Positions 4,744 through 32,262 of a stretch of 64,000 bases of DNA are shown here, piece by piece. The position numbers were made by a program, and so were the translations under genes. The stretch's first letter is position 1. Every line of letters begins with the position of its first letter. Under the pieces are notes generated by a model, which saw only the letters and a program-made list of their open reading frames with translations, did not search any database and was not told where the DNA came from. Source of the stretch: Patescibacteria group bacterium (lineage in GTDB: Bacteria; Patescibacteriota; Minisyncoccia; UBA6257; Colwellbacteraceae); the NCBI GenBank assembly GCA_023380475.1, contig JAMCRD010000006.1:2546-66545 (forward strand). Direction: 5' to 3'.

Positions 4744-4782
4744 GCCAATCGCGTAACCGACGGCCAGTCGGTTCCGTTCTAC

Positions 4783-24975: not shown

Positions 24976-25954
24976 GCTAAGAATTATGGTTGGAGGTGGC
25001 GCTGGGTATATAGGAAGCATATTAGTCCCGGAGCTATTGAGGCTGGGTCACAAAGTGACAGTTGTGGATTTGCTATGGTTCGGCAACCACTTACCTTCCG
25101 ATACTAAGATCATACAAAAGGATCTGTTCCATCTAGAAAAATCAGATCTAACCAATATAGATATATTTATATTCTTAGCCGGCCTTTCTAACGATCCAAT
25201 GGCAGAATTCAGCCCAGCTAAGAATTTCATATACAATGCGGCGCTACCAGCTTACTTAGCTTTTATAGCCAAACAGGCGGGGGTTAAACGTTACATATAC
25301 GCTTCATCGTGCTCTGTTTATGGTTACACTGATAACAGTTTATATGACGAAACTGCGCCAACCATATCCAGTTATCCCTACGGCATATCGAAGCTGCAAG
25401 GAGAAAAGGGGGTGTTTCAACTACAAGACAAGGACTTTTCTGTAATAGCCCTCAGACAAGGAACTGTAGGTGGCTATAGCCCTAGGATGCGTTTTGATCT
25501 GATAGTTAACACAATGTTTAAGACTGCTATAAAAGACGGGAAGATAACGATAAACAATCCCGCGATATGGAGACCGCTCTGCGACGTAAGAGACACGGCC
25601 GCAGCTTACGTTAAGGCGATACAACTGGATAGCCAAACTTCAGATGTCTTCAATATAGCATTGAGTAACTTCACTGTCGGTGAGATAGGAGAGGCTATTA
25701 AGAAGAAAATTGAAGAACTAACAAAAAAAAGTGTATTGATCGATGTAAAAAATGTTCAAGATTACCGCAACTATAAAGTATCTACAGACAAAGCTGCAAC
25801 AAAACTCGGATTCAAGGCGTCATTCTCAATAGCTGACACTATAGAGGAATTGTTTAGGCACATTGATCAATACCAAGATTTCGAAAAAGACGAGTTTTAC
25901 AACATACGTACCTTTAAGAAGATAGAGGGCGGGGGAGAACGCCAATACATCTAA
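24965..25954 (+). CDS. NAD-dependent epimerase/dehydratase
   Basis: 329 aa; GGGAGYIGS Rossmann, YxxxK (YGISK) catalytic motif. Confidence 0.7.
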   Translation: MIDKLRIMVGGGAGYIGSILVPELLRLGHKVTVVDLLWFGNHLPSDTKIIQKDLFHLEKSDLTNIDIFIFLAGLSNDPMAEFSPAKNFIYNAALPAYLAFIAKQAGVKRYIYASSCSVYGYTDNSLYDETAPTISSYPYGISKLQGEKGVFQLQDKDFSVIALRQGTVGGYSPRMRFDLIVNTMFKTAIKDGKITINNPAIWRPLCDVRDTAAAYVKAIQLDSQTSDVFNIALSNFTVGEIGEAIKKKIEELTKKSVLIDVKNVQDYRNYKVSTDKAATKLGFKASFSIADTIEELFRHIDQYQDFEKDEFYNIRTFKKIEGGGERQYI

Positions 25955-25987
25955 ATAGGCACCATACTAATCTCTTGTATGGTGCCG

Positions 25988-26062
25988 CGGGAGGGAATCG
26001 GACCCCCGACGCCAGCCTCTTCAGGGCTGCGCTCTACCACTGAGCTACCGCGGCGATAACAA
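25988..26062 (-). tRNA. tRNA-Phe(GAA)
   Basis: Minus strand: acceptor GCCGCGG/CCGCGGC, D arm GCTCAGTGGTAGAGC, anticodon loop CTGAAGA, CCA encoded. Confidence 0.8.
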
Positions 26063-26130
26063 AGACATGCTACACAAGATCAATCCATTCTTCAATGAAG
26101 GAGAGCAGATTGCTACATAGACAATAACTA

Positions 26131-27687
26131 TTATAGACTTGTAAAGTTCAACGGACTGCCCCCGTAGTTCAATGGATAGAACAGATCCGTCCTAAGGATA
26201 AAATAGGAGTTCGATTCTCTTCGGGGGCACCAAGTGAGAAATTGCAAATCCCCAGAAGTCGCCGCAGACGGCTGGGCGGCCAGTTCGTATTGTAATTTCG
26301 GGGCAAACGAGAATTCGCGGTTTCGCAAAATATGGTTCGAGCCGATGTTTTTGAGAAATGTTGTCATTGCAATTCCGTTATTCTCTTGAAGCAGTTTTGA
26401 GGCCTGATTGAGTGATAGAACGAACTCTCTCGCTGGTTCGAGCCACGACAGCCCTTTGTCCGCGAAATCGGATATTTTCTCCTGCAATCCGATTTTCCGA
26501 GAAAGCAGCTGTTCCTTCTTCGCGGCGTATTCGGTCTGGAACAGGGCGTCGGCAAGATAGGCATCGAGGAGTTTGGACAGCTTCGCCTCCACGCGGGCAA
26601 CTTCGTTTTTCAGAGTATCAATCTGCGCTCGCGCCTCCTCCCTTGCCTTGTCCCGTTCCGCCTCTAAGAGAGCTAACGCTTTCTCGGTATCATCGTCCGA
26701 CAAAGAAATTTTTTGCAGGAACGATTGTATATGCTCCGTCACTATCTCCTCGCGGAGATAGTGCTTTTCTTGGCACACGCCGCCTTTCTTTGTGCAACGA
26801 TAATAAGCATGGCCTTTCTGCATTTCGGCGGTGATGGAGCTTCCGCACGAGGCGCATTTCATAAGGCCGAGAAAAGCGAAATCATGCCGCTTCGTCTCAA
26901 TCGTCTTGCCGCGCTTTGCGCGCACCTCTTGGCAGAGGTCAAAAAGTTTCTTCGGGACAAGAGGTTCGTGGCGTCCCTCGTACAGTTCTCCGCGATACCG
27001 CATAAGGCCGTAATAGAAGGGGTTGGTTAAAATCTTCTGGATATTGCTAAGCGCAATCTCCTTGCCGAGGTTGCCTTTCAATCCTTGCTCTCGGCACCAA
27101 TCTACGAGGTCATGGAGCGTATAGCTTCCTATGGCGTAAAGCGCGAACAGCTTGCGGACAAGCGGGGCTTTCACGGGGTCAACATCAATCCCTCGCGTCC
27201 TCGGGTTGTTCAAGTAGCCAATCGGTGCCCAGCTCGGCCATACGCCGTTCCGTATCTTCTGCCGCAAGCCACGCTTTACGTTCTCCCGCAGGTTGTCCAC
27301 GAAGTATTTTGACTGCCCGAAGGCAATGTTGAGCATAAAGAGGCCTTGTGGTGTCGGCTCAAACCAGAACGTAGGGAACTTGAGGGACTTAATCAGGCCT
27401 CGGTCAATCATGTGGATGACCCGCCCGCCGTCCACGGAATTGCGGGCGAGGCGATCTGGGTGCCACGAGAGGATGCCCTGTGCCTTGCCGCGTTCCACGA
27501 ATGACAACATTTCAGCGAACTTAATACGGCCGGGTTCTTTGGCGGTCTTTGCCTCCTCAAAGGAAGCGACAATTTCAAGTTTTTCTTTGGCGGCAAATTC
27601 CCGAAGCTCCACCAGTTGAGCTTCTATGGACAGCACCTGCCCGTCGTCTTCTTCCGTTGATTTGCGAGCGTAGATTATGTATTTCAT
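26131..27687 (-). CDS. large serine recombinase (resolvase catalytic domain, recombinase domain, zinc ribbon, coiled coil)
   Basis: N-terminal YARKST..Q catalytic serine motif and ILSWHPDRLARN; CASCGS...CTKKGGVC zinc ribbon; coiled-coil region; last 28 codons are antisense of tRNA-Arg, so true stop is likely upstream. Confidence 0.85.
   Translation of the reverse strand: MKYIIYARKSTEEDDGQVLSIEAQLVELREFAAKEKLEIVASFEEAKTAKEPGRIKFAEMLSFVERGKAQGILSWHPDRLARNSVDGGRVIHMIDRGLIKSLKFPTFWFEPTPQGLFMLNIAFGQSKYFVDNLRENVKRGLRQKIRNGVWPSWAPIGYLNNPRTRGIDVDPVKAPLVRKLFALYAIGSYTLHDLVDWCREQGLKGNLGKEIALSNIQKILTNPFYYGLMRYRGELYEGRHEPLVPKKLFDLCQEVRAKRGKTIETKRHDFAFLGLMKCASCGSSITAEMQKGHAYYRCTKKGGVCQEKHYLREEIVTEHIQSFLQKISLSDDDTEKALALLEAERDKAREEARAQIDTLKNEVARVEAKLSKLLDAYLADALFQTEYAAKKEQLLSRKIGLQEKISDFADKGLSWLEPAREFVLSLNQASKLLQENNGIAMTTFLKNIGSNHILRNREFSFAPKLQYELAAQPSAATSGDLQFLTWCPRRESNSYFILRTDLFYPLNYGGSPLNFTSL
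26148..26222 (+). tRNA. tRNA-Arg(CCT)
   Basis: Acceptor GCCCCCG/CGGGGGC, anticodon loop GTCCTAA (stem has one G-A mismatch), T loop AGTTCGATTCT, CCA encoded; its last 6 nt (GCACCA) begin repeat X. Confidence 0.65.
26217..26315. repeat. inverted repeat X (99 bp), left copy
   Basis: Exact reverse complement of 27714-27812; spans tRNA-Arg 3' end and encodes residues RNREF...LTWC of recombinase ORF. Confidence 0.9.
26316..26339. repeat. inverted repeat Y (24 bp), left copy
   Basis: Exact reverse complement of 27923-27946; contiguous with X on the left, but separated from X' by Z on the right. Confidence 0.8.
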
Positions 27688-27691
27688 CGTG

Positions 27692-27711
27692 TTAAAAATT
27701 TTCTTTTCCCA
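27692..27711. repeat. 20-bp inverted repeat, left copy (ttaaaaattttcttttccca)
   Basis: Exact reverse complement of 27947-27966; forms the leader 4 nt upstream of the recombinase start codon. Confidence 0.85.
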
Positions 27712-27713
27712 GT

Positions 27714-27812
27714 CGAAACCGCGAATTCTCGTTTGCCCCGAAATTACAATACGAACTGGCCGCCCAGCCGTCTGCGGCGACTTCTGGGGATTTGCAATTT
27801 CTCACTTGGTGC
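27714..27812. repeat. inverted repeat X' (99 bp), right copy
   Basis: Exact reverse complement of 26217-26315; in-frame on + strand it re-encodes the same 33-aa peptide. Confidence 0.9.
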
Positions 27813-27897
27813 AGGACAATTGAGATAGCTCGAACGGTTTTTGACACCCCCACCGAGGCTAAATCTGAAACGCCCGACGTGGCGGAGCCGCACCGAT
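27809..27897. repeat. inverted repeat Z (89 bp)
   Basis: Reverse complement of 28659-28747 with one mismatch; overlaps X' by 4 nt (GTGC). Confidence 0.85.
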
Positions 27898-27922
27898 AAA
27901 GACCGCCAAAGAACCCGTTCCT

Positions 27923-27946
27923 AACATCGGCTCGAACCATATTTTG
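27923..27946. repeat. inverted repeat Y' (24 bp)
   Basis: Exact reverse complement of 26316-26339. Confidence 0.8.
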
Positions 27947-27966
27947 TGGGAAAAGAAAATTTTTAA
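27947..27966. repeat. 20-bp inverted repeat, right copy (tgggaaaagaaaatttttaa)
   Basis: Forms the leader 4 nt upstream of ATG 27971 of the small AT-rich gene; identical to the recombinase leader. Confidence 0.85.
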
Positions 27967-27970
27967 TCAT

Positions 27971-28141
27971 ATGAAAAAAGCATTATTAATTATTTGTGAG
28001 TTTATAGCGACGGTAGTTATTTTCTTATTGATTTATAAATTTTTTAATTTATCAACAGCTTTACCAATATGGATTGTAATCGTCATCATTTTGATAAAAA
28101 CGACAATTAGCCACGACGGTAAAGACAAAGACGGGGCATAG
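27971..28141 (+). CDS. small two-TM membrane protein (56 aa)
   Basis: ATG at 27971 (track ORF begins at a TTG inside Y'); very AT-rich coding sequence unlike the surrounding genome. Confidence 0.4.
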   Translation: MKKALLIICEFIATVVIFLLIYKFFNLSTALPIWIVIVIILIKTTISHDGKDKDGA

Positions 28142-28203
28142 GATTTTGAATATTGGTCAATCTGTTCCGCACCAATAAAGACACAAAGAAATAATTTTTA
28201 ACC

Positions 28204-28626
28204 ATGAAAAGATTAAAAAGTTTACTAGTGGTTTGGCTAGAAATTTTGGTCGGCGGCCTGATTTTAATTTTTGTGCCAGACATCAGATGGTTTCTGTTTT
28301 ATCTTTTAGTGATTGTTCTTATGACTTCGGTTATGCGAGCGGATTATCTGCGAAAGGTCGTCAGGGTGTTCCAAGTGGAGAATGGGGTTAATCTCGCTAG
28401 CATAGCCAAGAAACTCAACATATCGGAAGCAGAGATTCAGAAGTCCAGAGATGACCTTAGCGACAGCTTGCTGGACGACCAAAGAAAATCTTTGCATAAG
28501 GATATGGAAGAGCTTGGAATTTCCAGCCCCGAACGCTTTTACAGAAATCCAGTGGACGGCCTATCAGATACCGAAAGGGGTAAGAAATTCATGGATAAAG
28601 TTTTTAAGGACTTCGGGGATAACTAA
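28204..28626 (+). CDS. membrane protein with HTH-like segment
   Basis: 140 aa; two N-terminal TM helices, then VNLASIAKKLNISEAEIQKS resembling a helix-turn-helix; AT-rich. Confidence 0.4.
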   Translation: MKRLKSLLVVWLEILVGGLILIFVPDIRWFLFYLLVIVLMTSVMRADYLRKVVRVFQVENGVNLASIAKKLNISEAEIQKSRDDLSDSLLDDQRKSLHKDMEELGISSPERFYRNPVDGLSDTERGKKFMDKVFKDFGDN

Positions 28627-28658
28627 AATTTGCCGCCAAAGAAAAACTTGAAATTGTC

Positions 28659-28747
28659 ATCGGTGCGGCTCCGCCGCGTCGGGCGTTTCAGATTTAGCCT
28701 CGGTGGGGGTGTCAAAAACCGTTCGAGCTATCTCAATTGTCCTGCAC
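28659..28747. repeat. inverted repeat Z' (89 bp)
   Basis: Reverse complement of 27809-27897 with one mismatch; begins 33 nt after stop of 28204-28626. Confidence 0.85.
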
Positions 28748-28782
28748 TACTAATAATCTGCTAATTGAGCATATTATTAGTA
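28748..28782. repeat. 10-bp perfect palindrome TACTAATAAT/ATTATTAGTA with 15-nt spacer
   Basis: Seen directly; sits between Z' and tRNA-Arg(TCT). Confidence 0.6.
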
Positions 28783-28786
28783 GACC

Positions 28787-28858
28787 GTCCCCATAGTTCA
28801 ACGGATAGAACATCTCCCTTCTAAGGAGATGATTGAGGTTCGATTCCTCATGGGGACA
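28787..28858 (+). tRNA. tRNA-Arg(TCT)
   Basis: Acceptor GTCCCCA/TGGGGAC, anticodon stem TCTCC/GGAGA with loop CTTCTAA, T loop GGTTCGATTCC. Confidence 0.8.
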
Positions 28859-28859
28859 C

Positions 28860-28930
28860 CGGGCTGTAGTGTAATGGTAGCACGAGTCTTTTGGGAAGAT
28901 TTAGTCCGAGTTCGAATCTCGGCAGCCCGA
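28860..28930 (+). tRNA. tRNA-Pro(TGG)
   Basis: Acceptor CGGGCTG/CAGCCCG, anticodon loop TTTGGGA with G37, T loop AGTTCGAATCT; starts 2 nt after tRNA-Arg. Confidence 0.75.
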
Positions 28931-28954
28931 CAAAATAAAGTAGACCCATCTAGG

Positions 28955-28990
28955 TTAATAAAAGCCCACCTTTATCTATTTGGTGGGCTT
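28955..28990 (-). terminator. rho-independent terminator of the Cys-rich protein gene
   Basis: Minus-strand hairpin AAGCCCACC-loop-GGTGGGCTT followed by UUUUAUUAA. Confidence 0.5.
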
Positions 28991-28995
28991 ACTGC

Positions 28996-29331
28996 CTATG
29001 CTTCTTGAACGCCGTGAATGTCGGCTGACCTTTCGAGTATAACCCCAGGCAATTTCTTTGAGGTAATTACAGTCTTGGTCTGACCTTCACTAGACGTTAA
29101 CACTTCGCCTTTTAGCCCCAGATATATACCTTCTGCACAGCCCCAGCAAAACAGATCGCCGCAATCATAACCCTGAGCACCCCTATGTTGAGTGTGGTAG
29201 CTAAAACGGTTCCCTGACCTGCTGGTGTGGTAGCTGCACATGTTGATACCACAACCGCTGCACCTATCGAGGGCCCTATTATCACAACCCTTAACCTGGC
29301 ATTTGCCGTCTCTTGGCTCTGGAAGTGACAT
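28996..29331 (-). CDS. cysteine-rich small protein (zinc-ribbon-like)
   Basis: 111 aa with 12 Cys in CxxC-rich clusters (CQVKGC, CSGCGINMC, CGDLFCWGC). Confidence 0.4.
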   Translation of the reverse strand: MSLPEPRDGKCQVKGCDNRALDRCSGCGINMCSYHTSRSGNRFSYHTQHRGAQGYDCGDLFCWGCAEGIYLGLKGEVLTSSEGQTKTVITSKKLPGVILERSADIHGVQEA

Positions 29332-30709: not shown

Positions 30710-30780
30710 GCGGGTATCGTATAGCGGTATTACATCTGGTTGCCAATCAGATGACAGGGGTTCGACTCCCCTTACCCGCT
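30710..30780 (+). tRNA. tRNA-Gly(GCC)
   Basis: Acceptor GCGGGTA/TACCCGC, anticodon stem TCTGG/TCAGA with loop TTGCCAA, T loop GGTTCGACTCC; no encoded CCA. Confidence 0.75.
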
Positions 30781-32262
30781 CAAGGTTATTTCTTCTTCAA
30801 CGCCTATATTTTTTATAAAGTCCGCGTCGTGAGATATAACTATCAGCGCGCCTCTGAAATTAGATAGAGCGCTTTCAATTTTTTCGATACTGTCTAGATC
30901 TAAATTATTGGTCGGTTCATCTAAGACAAGGAGTTGCGGCGGTTTTTCTCCAGATAAGATACATGCCAGTGCGGCACGCATCTTTTCCCCGCCGCTTAGT
31001 ACATCGACTTTCTTTATAATATCGCTGTCTCTAAACAAAAATCTGGCGAGCCACTTCCTGGATGCTTCGTTATCAAGCCCAGATATGCGCTCCATGTTGT
31101 TTAGAAGGGTCGCATCCCTAGATAGCCTTACAACATCCTGATCAAGATATGCCACTCTATCTATACCAAGCACGACCCTACCTACCACTGGATTTATTTC
31201 TTTCAAAATTATCTTTACCAGCGTGGTTTTCCCTGAACCGTTCGGCCCGCTTATGGACACCCTTACCGGGCCATAAAGATCAAGATTAAACTTTCTCAAT
31301 ATAGGCTTCGTACCGTAAGAGAAACTCACGTCTTTCAGTGTCGAAACAAGTTTGCCGCTAGGGACTTCTGTTCCGGAAATATCCACTTTTATGCTATTTT
31401 CCGGCGGGATCCTGGCCACAGCTTCCTCCAATGCACGTTTGGCATTGTTCACTCTAATAATATGAGTTAGGTGCAGTTTGGAACTCGTTTTCTCGCTGGT
31501 TTCTTTCATATGACCAAGCTCCAATCTGGACATCCCCAACTTGCCCTTCACCGCCCGTCCACGTCTAACCCTAACTCGCTGTCTTTCCAACATAGCTTCA
31601 GCCTGTTGCTCAGCGAGCTTAAACTTTTCACGCTTTACGGTTACATCCCTAGCAGCTGCTGCGCTCTCCGAATTCTTAATCTCTCTGTATGCAGAGTAGT
31701 TGCCACCGTAAAGCCTTAACCCATTTTCTGATAATTCAAGAATTCTATCCACTAAATTGAGCAGCTGTCGGTCGTGACTAACTACCAGCACGCCGCCACG
31801 CCAGTTCTCTACCAATTTGTAGATCACCTCGCGCGAAGCGCGATCCAGATTGTTGGTAGGCTCATCCAGTATTAGGAACTTCGGTTGCGATGCTATCAGG
31901 CTAGCCAGGACGACTTTCACTCTTTCACCGCCACTTAGGTTCCCAAGTGCGCGATTGGGTTCGATGTGTTTTATACCGAGTTCGGGGAACTTCCCCAAAC
32001 CATTTGCGCCAGCTACATCCAACACCTTCCTCGAAAGATCAACGTGCATATCTTGCGGCAGATAAGCTGTGCGAACCAACCTCTCGATCTTGCCTCTACT
32101 GGGTTCGATTTCGCCGACAAGCAACTTCAGAAAAGTAGTTTTACCCACACCGTTCTTGCCGACCAGGCCTGTTTTCTCACTGTCAAAGCTTGCAGTTATA
32201 TCTCTAAGGATGTAACCCGAACCCGCATCGAATGATATGTTTTTAGCTACTATGTCTGCCAT
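30772..32262 (-). CDS. ABC-F family ATPase (tandem ABC domains, no TM domain)
   Basis: Two Walker A sites (GKNGVGKTT, GPNGSGKTT), two signature motifs (LSGGERVK, LSGGEKMR), charged linker between them. Confidence 0.8.
   Translation of the reverse strand: MADIVAKNISFDAGSGYILRDITASFDSEKTGLVGKNGVGKTTFLKLLVGEIEPSRGKIERLVRTAYLPQDMHVDLSRKVLDVAGANGLGKFPELGIKHIEPNRALGNLSGGERVKVVLASLIASQPKFLILDEPTNNLDRASREVIYKLVENWRGGVLVVSHDRQLLNLVDRILELSENGLRLYGGNYSAYREIKNSESAAAARDVTVKREKFKLAEQQAEAMLERQRVRVRRGRAVKGKLGMSRLELGHMKETSEKTSSKLHLTHIIRVNNAKRALEEAVARIPPENSIKVDISGTEVPSGKLVSTLKDVSFSYGTKPILRKFNLDLYGPVRVSISGPNGSGKTTLVKIILKEINPVVGRVVLGIDRVAYLDQDVVRLSRDATLLNNMERISGLDNEASRKWLARFLFRDSDIIKKVDVLSGGEKMRAALACILSGEKPPQLLVLDEPTNNLDLDSIEKIESALSNFRGALIVISHDADFIKNIGVEEEITLSG

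Follow-up and report, generated by a model that had tools for sequence, protein, structure and literature searches.

A candidate promoter segment beside a serine recombinase gene of Patescibacteria appears to be an inverted copy of the joined ends of a tRNA-targeting mobile element

Patescibacteria (Candidate Phyla Radiation) make up a very large share of bacterial diversity, most of it uncultured, and descriptions of their mobile elements are, to our knowledge, very scarce. The locus studied here raises the question of whether a short inverted repeat between two divergent genes marks an invertible promoter switch. It lies in a 64,000-nucleotide stretch of patescibacterial DNA, the whole of which is referred to as the window. 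Two features define the repeat:

27692-27711, minus strand: leader E of the recombinase gene, the left arm of the repeat
27947-27966, plus strand: leader E of the cargo genes, the right arm of the repeat

The left arm reads TTAAAAATTTTCTTTTCCCA and the right arm is its exact reverse complement. Each is followed, at a distance of 4 nt, by an ATG: that of the recombinase gene at 27687 (minus strand) and that of a small gene at 27971 (plus strand). At up to 2 mismatches, the arm had 2 matches in the 64-kb window, against 0 expected from 100 shuffles. The original prediction that two identical leaders enclose a 235-bp segment was thus borne out. It had also been proposed that the segment carries a promoter and no ORF, and that it inverts in the manner of fim-like or Bacteroides invertons, redirecting transcription between the recombinase and the small membrane-protein genes.

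The recombinase gene was characterized as follows:

26131-27687, minus strand: large serine recombinase ORF of 518 aa, with Pfam Resolvase, Recombinase and Zn_ribbon_recom domains

Pfam scores were 5e-21 for PF00239, 1e-15 for PF07508 and 1e-7 for PF13408, and the catalytic residue, Ser10, occurs in the context YARKST. Homologues with 91% identity exist, and more than 7,500 relatives were retrieved at E <= 1e-20. In NCBIfam, the protein belonged to no named curated family (XisF, CcrA/B/C, IS607 transposase): it scored 75 bits against a cut-off of 375 for XisF and 70 against 900 for CcrB. It matched only one solved resolvase-family catalytic domain, and that weakly. Gene callers miss or mis-end this gene, which is uncalled in the deposited assembly. 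The analogy with fim-like or Bacteroides invertons fails at this step, the enzyme being an integrase-type large serine recombinase (LSR) whose own crossover core, GTGC, is located elsewhere.

The 3' end of the recombinase gene runs into a tRNA gene. The element and its flanks are:

26227-28747, no strand: whole integrated element, about 2.5 kb, with the 4-nt core GCAC/GTGC at both ends
26158-26232, plus strand: tRNA-Arg(CCT) (ARAGORN; Rfam tRNA, 59 bits); integration targets its 3' end, GCACCA, which also supplies the host half of the right-hand junction
28787-28931, plus strand: tRNA-Arg(TCT) and tRNA-Pro(TGG), host genes immediately downstream (ARAGORN, Rfam)

The element is located inside a tRNA cluster, where it occupies the CCA end of tRNA-Arg(CCT) and its recombinase gene converges on that tRNA. 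The final 31 recombinase codons are read-through into antisense tRNA, and the crossover core GTGC lies at the gene end, within the codons TGG TGC. Homology among the insertions in this window, L002, L003 and L004 extends from (T)GTGCAGGAC to ...GTGC, the host flanks being unrelated. The discrete ends were identical in five insertions at different host sites (this window and L001-L004), which shared only the short core GTGC. A tRNA abuts the 3' end of the recombinase gene at the same offset in 31 of 40 relatives, and more than 15 tRNA species serve as targets. In all relatives, antisense-tRNA tails follow ...FPxWC. Because all recombinase ORF tails are antisense tRNA, every copy seen is integrated, and native-tail recombinases as a sign of circles were ruled out for the same reason. 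None of 20 full contigs had the terminal overlaps of a circular contig, and several break at repeat arms. In 25800-29100, the only RNA families found in Rfam at E <= 1 were tRNAs. A phage origin was considered and rejected, neither test pattern being present in IMG/VR. Judged by its ends and target, 26227-28747 is an apparent integrated LSR mobile element of a Patescibacteria family whose members measure about 1.7-3 kb. The family comprises at least 550 loci in species-representative genomes, and we found no published description of it in the searchable literature. The empty site is predicted to consist of tRNA-Arg(CCT) followed directly by TACTAATAATCTG.

All but 7 bases of the 235-bp segment are accounted for by exact reverse-complement copies of other parts of this element, pieced together; the only unique bases are 27712-27713 and 27918-27922. 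The repeats, all confined to 26227-28747, are:

26227-26325, minus strand: segment A, gene copy; recombinase 3' end and right end of the element, a 99-nt exact inverted repeat whose position is conserved in relatives
27714-27812, plus strand: inverted A copy, the reverse complement of 26227-26325 (99 nt); first half of the internal joint copy
27809-27897, plus strand: Ytail copy, the reverse complement of 28659-28747 (89 nt, 1 mismatch)
28659-28747, minus strand: Ytail, terminal copy; left end in the recombinase sense, ending in the core GCAC beside host DNA
26326-26349, minus strand: segment B, gene copy (codons NIGSNHIL), with a 24-nt exact reverse-complement copy at 27923-27946
27531-27550, minus strand: segment C, gene copy (codons about 46-53), with a 20-nt exact reverse-complement copy at 27898-27917
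27898-27946, plus strand: C copy (27898-27917) and B copy (27923-27946) with a 5-nt joiner
27568-27599, minus strand: segment D, gene copy (codons about 30-40), with a 32-nt exact reverse-complement copy at 28627-28658
28627-28658, plus strand: D copy, outside the 235-bp segment; it closes the cargo slot and likewise bounds the cargo in relatives

The A copy and the Ytail copy overlap by exactly the 4-nt core GTGC (27809-27812). Read in frame, this joint copy yields a native recombinase tail, ...LTWCRTIEIARTVFDTPTEAKSETPDVAEPHR and stop, and it is flanked by the imperfect dyad symmetry TCTCAnTTG ... CAAnTGAGA. Fused through GTGC, A and Ytail give the predicted circle joint (attP), intact but inverted. 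Taken as a whole, the 235-bp segment copies the element's joined ends in inverted form, and the repeat arms are explicable by inverted segmental duplication. The segment had been described as free of ORFs; mechanically, this was wrong, as a 92-codon ORF (27692-27970, minus strand) covers all of it and ORFs of 48-49 codons are also present. As for a possible conserved small protein encoded in the segment, a frame on the recombinase strand is open in most loci, an observation confounded by its being antisense to coding segments.

Here and in relatives, the order upstream of the recombinase is inverted A, core, Ytail, C, B, leader E, variable slot and D, which amounts to part of the circularised element copied in inverted orientation. 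Segment A and its own copy had a mean identity of 96% within a locus, compared with 67% between loci. Segment C co-varies with its copy across clades, and B, D and E likewise track their gene copies; the DNA of segment D is nearly invariant across all relatives. Perfect leader repeats of 15-29 bp occurred in about 45 loci, their sequence differing by clade while the arms stayed matched. Mismatches between arms amounted to about 1% and were unbiased. In relatives, the leader consensus, TTTTGGGGGAAGAAAATTTTTTAAT, stands 4-25 nt ahead of the ATG. In some of them, a hairpin and not a start codon follows the leader copy.

The slot replaces the first ~30 recombinase codons with cargo, which in this window consists of two small membrane proteins:

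27971-28141, plus strand: cargo gene 1 (from the ORF list), encoding a 56-aa hydrophobic protein with no family in Pfam, NCBIfam or PADLOC
28204-28626, plus strand: cargo gene 2, encoding 140 aa with an N-terminal membrane segment and no family in Pfam, NCBIfam or PADLOC

The second protein was the sole member of its cluster, which is annotated as hypothetical (Patescibacteria bacterium). A defence role for the cargo was rejected, PADLOC returning no match. The slot genes of relatives were unrelated and included AHSA1, glyoxalase-like, methyltransferase, NAD(P)HX dehydratase, DUF218, HIT, bPH_2 and secreted proteins.

A candidate promoter spans the internal joint:

27792-27820, plus strand: candidate junction promoter, with -35 TTGCAA at 27792-27797, a 17-nt spacer and -10 GACAAT at 27815-27820; it points to the cargo

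The register of this split promoter was identical in 30/30 correctly extracted loci: the -35 hexamer (TTGACT or TTGCAA) lies in A, the 17-nt spacer contains the core, and the -10 hexamer starts 2 nt past the core. In 13 loci the promoter scored at least 9/12, a value reached by 1.5% of shuffles. The window's own copy scored 8/12, which is under the 9/12 threshold of a generic sigma-70 scan; at that threshold, the scan returned no promoter-like site in 27692-27966. The TTGACA hexamer that had been singled out is present at 27841-27846 and lacks a -10 partner. The prediction of a promoter within the segment therefore finds a candidate in TTGCAA-17-GACAAT, which is not the hexamer originally flagged. 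In relatives, the cargo is nearly always co-directional with the candidate promoter. These data suggest that the joint bears a sigma-70-type promoter, with its -35 element in A and its -10 element in Ytail. The conserved register could instead reflect conserved codons, L-T/Q-F-P, at the -35 position and a recombinase-binding arm at the -10 position.

Inversion of the segment, as originally predicted, found no support in the relatives. The mosaic was present in 43 of the 49 independent loci with enough upstream DNA, and was kept across recombinases only 62-91% identical, with differing cargo and tRNA targets. The 43 canonical loci, together with 2 degraded ones, all had one orientation; 0 of these 45 carried a direct (flipped) copy, giving an upper 95% bound of about 6% for flipped-majority loci. 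Two assemblies of this organism agreed in segment orientation. When the JGI metagenome collection was scanned for the flipped junction, only four variants were obtained, all non-flipped. Three alternative isomers were also rejected: the recombinase body in flipped orientation, integration by way of the internal joint, and cargo 3' of the recombinase. None of about 65 loci had a direct or downstream copy. An assembly artefact had been suspected since one repeat measures exactly 99 nt. This was dismissed because MEGAHIT, SPAdes and other assemblies of unrelated samples contain that repeat too, again 99 nt long and with its arms exactly 1388 nt apart.

Several relatives depart from the canonical form. 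The minimal relative L085 has the order Ytail-C-B-E-recombinase-A, without the inverted copy, so that the two promoter halves lie at opposite ends of the element. In the minimal relatives L084-L087, C-B lies directly oriented ahead of the leader, and L084, L086 and L087 retain native first codons between E and D. L050 retains inverted first codons. The cargo-less L021 and L061 consist of a hairpin of Ytail and its inverted copy, followed by inverted A, the recombinase and A. In L071, the recombinase half has a tRNA-Ala gene on either side, the two being convergent, and each junction joins a tRNA to A, an arrangement that requires use of the internal joint.

On balance, we think it somewhat probable that a fixed, preassembled junction promoter and a duplicated leader drive the cargo, the locus being a static divergent expression region born of inverted duplication and not a phase-variable switch. 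According to this model, minimal relatives would assemble the promoter only in the excised circle, where it would then drive the recombinase, as in Tn4451 and in insertion-sequence (IS) circles. In the canonical form, the internal joint would be permanently assembled and aimed at the cargo, thereby providing a fixed cargo promoter and leader. The recombinase would be poorly expressed in the integrated state, with transcription from the true joint occurring only after excision. Two observations are not accounted for by static duplication: arms of 20-30 nt that match their gene copies while the gene diverges, and eight nested helices in the recombinase ORF of other clades.

These helices were identified by comparing 61 genes and are long-range and perfectly nested. 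Their cells were paired in 89.7% of cases, versus 40-47% with the partners slid. Double-compensatory cells numbered 103, versus 33.5 in shuffles, and 0/500 shuffles reached the observed value. Measured against synonymous shuffles, other clades had folding z values of -6 to -10.6, the repeat-less L085 among them. Exceptional folding was rejected for the recombinase gene of the window itself (z = -3.7, versus -3.5 for a host ABC-F control), whose ORF has lost several of the helices. The structural claim thus holds only for other clades. Strand-specific RNA structure was likewise rejected: there was no bias between G:U and A:C cells, either in the ORF helices (222 vs 225) or in the outer arms (about 50 vs 50).

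A broader reading is possible, if doubtful: the inverted joint copy, the short repeats that stay matched and the nested, self-complementary stretches of the recombinase ORF might be parts of one programmed device, either a rarely flipping cassette or a two-attP circle or folded single strand that lets either half insert. The locus L071 bears on the two-attP circle or folded-strand version.

The flipping cassette, taken by itself, we consider unlikely. Recombination between the leaders would invert 27712-27946, and a few cells would switch from cargo-on/recombinase-off to recombinase-on, triggering excision. Such a flip would indeed set joint promoter, Ytail, C, B and leader before the recombinase, which is the natural upstream order in L085, and to that extent the redirection originally envisaged is supported. 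The 5' UTR would be the same in either orientation, the leaders being identical, and these leader repeats are perfect in about 45 loci, their arms matched despite differences between clades. A recombinase-on state would be transient and hence rarely assembled. Against this, none of the 45 loci was flipped, the JGI scan yielded no flipped junction, and the two assemblies of the organism agree. Moreover, the leader is unlike the recombinase's own sites, with their core GTGC, and the ORF list contains no invertase within the element separate from the 518-aa LSR, its sole recombinase. Integrase-type LSRs are established to recombine attP with attB, not identical inverted sites, and homologous recombination over 20 bp is very inefficient.

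Less probable still is a single-stranded stage in which either strand folds into a rod or dumbbell, the source being DNA from natural transformation or RNA transcribed from both strands, some of it by read-through from the tRNA promoter. The joint would become duplex as A-Ytail pairs with its inverted copy; segments E, D, C and B would likewise pair with their copies, and the recombinase body would fold on itself. The eight nested ORF helices with compensatory changes, the z of -6 to -10.6 in other clades and the cargo-less hairpin variants L021 and L061 are consistent with such a stage, and unbiased mismatches are what constraint on both strands predicts. However, the outer repeat pairs cross, so that a single fold could not accommodate them all, the ORF in this window is unexceptional (z = -3.7 vs -3.5) with several helices lost, and cutting of a hairpin-formed site by a serine recombinase would leave hairpin-capped chromosome ends. 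We also know of no LSR element with a single-stranded intermediate, which counts against this reading.

Finally, a functionless relic, in which an ancient snap-back inverted duplication at a hairpin past the recombinase stop was kept identical by gene conversion and cargo landed in dispensable DNA, is improbable: the structure, A-Ytail + rc(A-Ytail-C-B-E-N-D) + E-N-D, has the signature of an inverted duplication, intermediates exist (hairpin-only L021 and L061; L050), and about 1% unbiased arm mismatches fit copying and not selection for pairing, but the architecture persists in 43/49 loci despite 62-91% recombinase identity, gene conversion is implausible for 20-30-nt arms in non-homologous DNA, where C, B, D and E nevertheless track, and both the cargo orientation and the promoter register are conserved, the former almost without exception.

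With its many tRNA targets and diverse one-gene slot, the family is likely a major route by which the reduced genomes of Patescibacteria acquire accessory genes. A recombinase that recognises tRNA 3' ends within a ~2-kb element could also serve as a compact integration tool. The promoter and the repeat network raise the question of how a minimal element couples cargo expression, recombinase silencing and mobility. If the programmed-device reading were true, the mode of self-regulation or transfer would be new for serine-recombinase elements; such a device might suit Patescibacteria, which probably gain DNA mainly by uptake.

Among known systems, the E. coli fimS and Bacteroides Mpi/Tsr invertons share with this locus a short perfect inverted repeat, an adjacent recombinase gene and a position between divergent genes, the repeat enclosing a few hundred bp that here contain a candidate promoter. 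The present element differs in that its recombinase, neither a fim-type tyrosine invertase nor a small Hin/Mpi-type serine invertase, is an LSR with sites elsewhere. Further, the arms are duplicated leaders, the segment consists of copies of recombinase-gene fragments, and a single orientation was found in 45 loci. Nor is the element an integron: it encodes a serine recombinase, not IntI, and its slot is bounded by recombinase-gene copies (E and D), not attC.

The integrases of phiC31, Bxb1, A118 and SPbeta resemble the recombinase in their Resolvase, Recombinase and zinc ribbon domains, Ser10 context, short shared core and dyad joint. By contrast with those systems, many tRNAs are targeted instead of one attB, there is no recognisable directionality factor gene, and the circle would hold two inverted attP sites. 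In archaeal viruses of the SSV1 type, attP lies inside the integrase gene. Similarly, the crossover here falls in the recombinase coding sequence, so tRNA integration alters the 3' end of the gene. Unlike in SSV1, the enzyme is a serine and not a tyrosine recombinase, only dispensable last codons are exchanged, so that the gene is not halved, and the host is bacterial.

Tycheposons of Prochlorococcus are described as small tRNA-targeting cargo islands (bioRxiv 10.1101/2020.12.28.424599). As far as that description goes, both are compact integrative elements of tRNA genes that carry variable accessory cargo in streamlined genomes. The elements described here are much smaller than those islands: their slot takes one gene, they encode a single LSR, and they contain an inverted joint copy internally.

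In Tn4451 and Tn4453 of Clostridium, an LSR, TnpX, excises the element as a circle and targets GA dinucleotide sites. Circle formation by Tn4451 creates a promoter for TnpX, a large resolvase (Lyras & Rood 2000, as cited in PMC13023037, ref. 38). The parallel is that joining of the ends would assemble a promoter for a large serine recombinase, the case represented here by L085. The split -35/-10 arrangement of circle-junction promoter elements (Tn4451, IS911/IS30-type) is found here at the level of sequence only. Compared with Tn4451/Tn4453, the present elements target tRNA 3' ends, not GA dinucleotides, place the crossover inside the recombinase ORF, lack mobilisation genes, occur in Patescibacteria and carry a second, preassembled inverted joint that faces a one-gene slot.

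The 20-bp inverted repeat on which an invertible promoter switch at 27692-27966 had been proposed is real. TGGGAAAAGAAAATTTTTAA occurs at 27692-27711 (minus strand) and 27947-27966 (plus strand), and these are its only copies in the window when up to two mismatches are allowed (0 expected by chance). Start codons indeed lie 4 nt past each arm, opening a 518-aa ORF (26131-27687, minus) and a 56-aa ORF (27971-28141, plus). The original prediction described the 235-bp segment between the arms as free of ORFs, which is incorrect: a 92-codon minus-strand ORF crosses it entirely. The TTGACA hexamer is present at 27841-27846 but has no −10 partner, and a generic promoter scan of the segment reported nothing. 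The two leader copies mark the exact limits of the 92-codon ORF (27692-27970, minus), which starts in a palindromic CATATG that also contains the cargo ATG and stops at a TAA within the leader, 4 nt ahead of the recombinase ATG. A same-strand open frame spans the entire intergenic region in most relatives, and may be a simple consequence of lying antisense to coding segments.

Resolvase, Recombinase and zinc-ribbon domains identify the 518-aa protein as a large serine recombinase (LSR). Its scores against the curated XisF, Ccr and IS607 families were far under the cut-offs, and solved structures yielded a weak match to one resolvase-family catalytic domain and nothing more. The recombinase ORF continues antisense across tRNA-Arg(CCT) (26158-26232). 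Homology common to five related insertions, whose host sites are unrelated, runs from (T)GTGCAGGAC to ...GTGC, limits that place the element at 26227-28747. The stretch from the element end to tRNA-Arg(TCT) (28747-28783) is taken up by a 16-bp hairpin (CTACTAATAATCTGCT / AGCATATTATTAGTAG), probably the spacer that originally separated the two tRNA-Arg genes. The host is a Patescibacteria MAG, and the region is 100% identical to contig JAMCXC010000021.1 of GCA_023476555.1. As deposited, that assembly carries the intact recombinase (window 26131-27687) without a gene call, only a 73-aa antisense ORF being called inside it. The exact 518-aa sequence was absent from a collection of 15 billion proteins.

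The 235-bp segment is a mosaic: 228 of its bases reproduce, as exact reverse complements, sequence that lies elsewhere within 1.6 kb. No similar repeats were found elsewhere in the 64-kb window.

Repeated pieces, named in the recombinase sense, and flanking genes (rc, reverse complement)
27714-27812, rc of 26227-26325: copy of A, the final 33 recombinase codons, the last two being TGG TGC
27809-27897, rc of 28659-28747 with one mismatch: copy of Ytail, the opposite element end
27898-27917, rc of 27531-27550: copy of C, recombinase codons about 46-53
27923-27946, rc of 26326-26349: copy of B, recombinase codons NIGSNHIL
28627-28658, rc of 27568-27599: copy of D, recombinase codons about 30-40; beyond the segment
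27692-27711 (minus) and 27947-27966 (plus): piece E, the leader
28787-28931: tRNA-Arg(TCT) and tRNA-Pro, downstream of the element

The plus strand thus reads tRNA, rcA, rcB, rcC, rcD, rcE, A·Ytail, C, B, E, cargo, D, rcYtail, spacer and tRNA. The overlap between A and Ytail is exactly GTGC, and these 4 nt also close the element at both sides. Given this overlap and the fixed ends, the internal A·Ytail is an intact inverted copy of the joined ends, that is, of the circle joint (attP).

This arrangement is widespread. More than 7,500 relatives of the recombinase were detected at E ≤ 1e-20, nearly all the named ones from Patescibacteria, and species-representative genomes contain at least 550 loci. 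The same repeats recur in three close relatives whose samples and assemblers differ, one of these repeats being 99 nt long with its arms exactly 1388 nt apart; this excludes an assembly artefact. Across ~70 loci, with recombinases 62-91% identical, the repeat offsets from the ATG are constant. In 31 of 40 loci the recombinase 3' end adjoins a tRNA gene, with more than 15 tRNA species represented, and the common target of these insertions is the GCACCA end. Beyond ...FPxWC, every recombinase C-terminus is antisense-tRNA read-through, so all copies examined are integrated. In the relative loci L001, L044, L053 and many others, contigs begin or end exactly at a repeat arm (rcD, Ytail or rcA) or within the recombinase, indicating that these elements systematically break short-read Patescibacteria assemblies.

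The cargo slot between rcE and rcD spans 0.5-1.7 kb. Its genes are mutually unrelated and almost always oriented away from the recombinase; examples encode AHSA1/SRPBCC, glyoxalase-like, NAD(P)HX dehydratase, DUF218, HIT and bPH_2 proteins, methyltransferases, and many secreted or membrane proteins. Family searches gave no assignment for the window's two cargo proteins. The secreted, unrelated-looking cargo proteins of L010, L023 and L064 have in common a membrane anchor (MNxK..I..I) at the N-terminus and the motif STFKFL(H/K/E) at the C-terminus.

Flipping 27712-27946 would set A·Ytail-C-B-E ahead of the recombinase. This is the order in L085, a minimal element (Ytail-C-B-E-recombinase-A) adjoining tRNA-Glu, without cargo and with C and B as direct copies, and it gives a promoter inverton a structural rationale. 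Nevertheless, such a switch is unlikely. An orientation census of 49 loci, each with at least 450 nt upstream and the full gene, comprised 43 canonical (with the inverted upstream copy), 2 degraded and 4 different loci, with no direct (flipped) copy among them, the 45 canonical and degraded loci included. A metagenome-collection scan for the junction predicted after a flip (B-E-ATG of the recombinase) returned four loci, L084 to L087, none of which was a flipped canonical element, and this organism's two assemblies do not differ in orientation. Moreover, the recombinase's own sites are located elsewhere than the repeat arms, and the element does not encode an invertase.

The repeat is better understood as a duplication. 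The canonical upstream region consists of A·Ytail + rc(A·Ytail-C-B-E-N-D) + E-N-D, N being the native first codons. By this layout, the joint-to-D region of the circular form has been duplicated in inverted orientation, with cargo in place of N, which makes the reported 20-nt repeat two leader copies. L084, L086 and L087 are C-B-E units in which the native start of the gene (~40 codons, as far as D) is retained. Among intermediates, inverted first codons are still present in L050, and L021 and L061 have a Ytail-rcYtail hairpin, rcA, E, the recombinase and A. In the 260 nt upstream of the recombinase, L021, L061 and L039 are cargo-less, Ytail being followed directly by rcYtail in a hairpin of ~70-90 nt centred on a small GC-rich stem, then by rcA and the leader. 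L057 has three tandem units. What look like arrays of cargo modules, in which D, C and E copies bound several units in tandem, occur in this locus (~2.4 kb ahead of the recombinase ATG at 4751) and in L029 and L033. In L071 (4799-6595), rcA-E-recombinase-A lies between convergent tRNA-Ala genes (CGC, TGC) and both junctions are of the tRNA-A type. As two A-type half sites are needed, this arrangement requires the internal joint copy to have been used in recombination, by cassette exchange or inversion.

Within a locus, A and its copy are 96% identical, as against 67% between loci. The C, B, D and E copies (20-30 nt) follow clade-specific variants of their gene copies, and arm mismatches (~1%) have no wobble bias. 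An alignment of 61 recombinase genes revealed eight perfectly nested long-range helices within the ORF.

Helices in the recombinase ORF (nt of L015)
174-188 with 1320-1334
287-297 with 1279-1289
379-392 with 657-670
394-406 with 577-589
734-749 with 972-987
810-822 with 914-926
988-1000 with 1238-1250
1010-1021 with 1160-1171

In these helices, 89.7% of cells are paired (40-47% in slid controls), double-compensatory cells are three times those in shuffles (0 of 500 shuffles reach the observed value), and there is no strand bias (222 vs 225). Folding energy is 6-10.6 SD under synonymous-codon shuffles in L015, L032, L074 and L085. The window copy, which has lost several helices (z = −3.7), and L005 (−3.0) do not stand out against a host ABC-F gene. 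That gene (30772-32262, minus) folds 3.5 SD below such shuffles, so ordinary genes need not score near zero. A both-strand constraint, or a copying process, fits the arms and helices better than ordinary mRNA structure.

The internal joint was aligned on its core in 33 loci, 30 of them correctly extracted. In all 30, the best sigma-70-type match falls in one register: a candidate −35 (TTGACT/TTGCAA) in the terminal part of A, then a 17-nt spacer that includes TGGTGC-AG, and a candidate −10 (TATTCT/TATATT/GATACT) beginning 2 nt past the core. Scores reach at least 9/12 in 13 loci, compared with 1.5% of shuffles; the window candidate scores 8/12 (TTGCAA 27792-27797, GACAAT 27815-27820, plus). 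In L085 the −35 and −10 halves lie at opposite element ends, such that the promoter would exist in the circle only, reading Ytail-C-B-E-recombinase. From these sequence relationships, their conservation and their orientation, we infer promoter activity, excision and regulation as follows. In the canonical form, the inverted internal joint would be a permanently assembled promoter copy that drives the cargo via the duplicated leader. The integrated recombinase would lack the joint promoter; only after excision would the true joint reach it, via a long leader containing the Ytail/rcYtail repeat.

The searchable literature yielded no account of this element family, nor of an inverted joint copy carried internally. 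The element lies outside all curated LSR families tested, and is notable for its abundance in Patescibacteria and its repeat network. Like promoter invertons it has an inverted-repeat pair, but it was found in one orientation only in the loci surveyed and lacks a dedicated invertase. Its attP × attB-type ends liken it to phage LSR integrases and, as in SSV1, the crossover lies inside the recombinase gene. Finally, its candidate junction promoter likens it to insertion-sequence (IS) circles and to Tn4451, whose circle forms a promoter for its large resolvase according to PMC13023037, which cites Lyras & Rood (2000).
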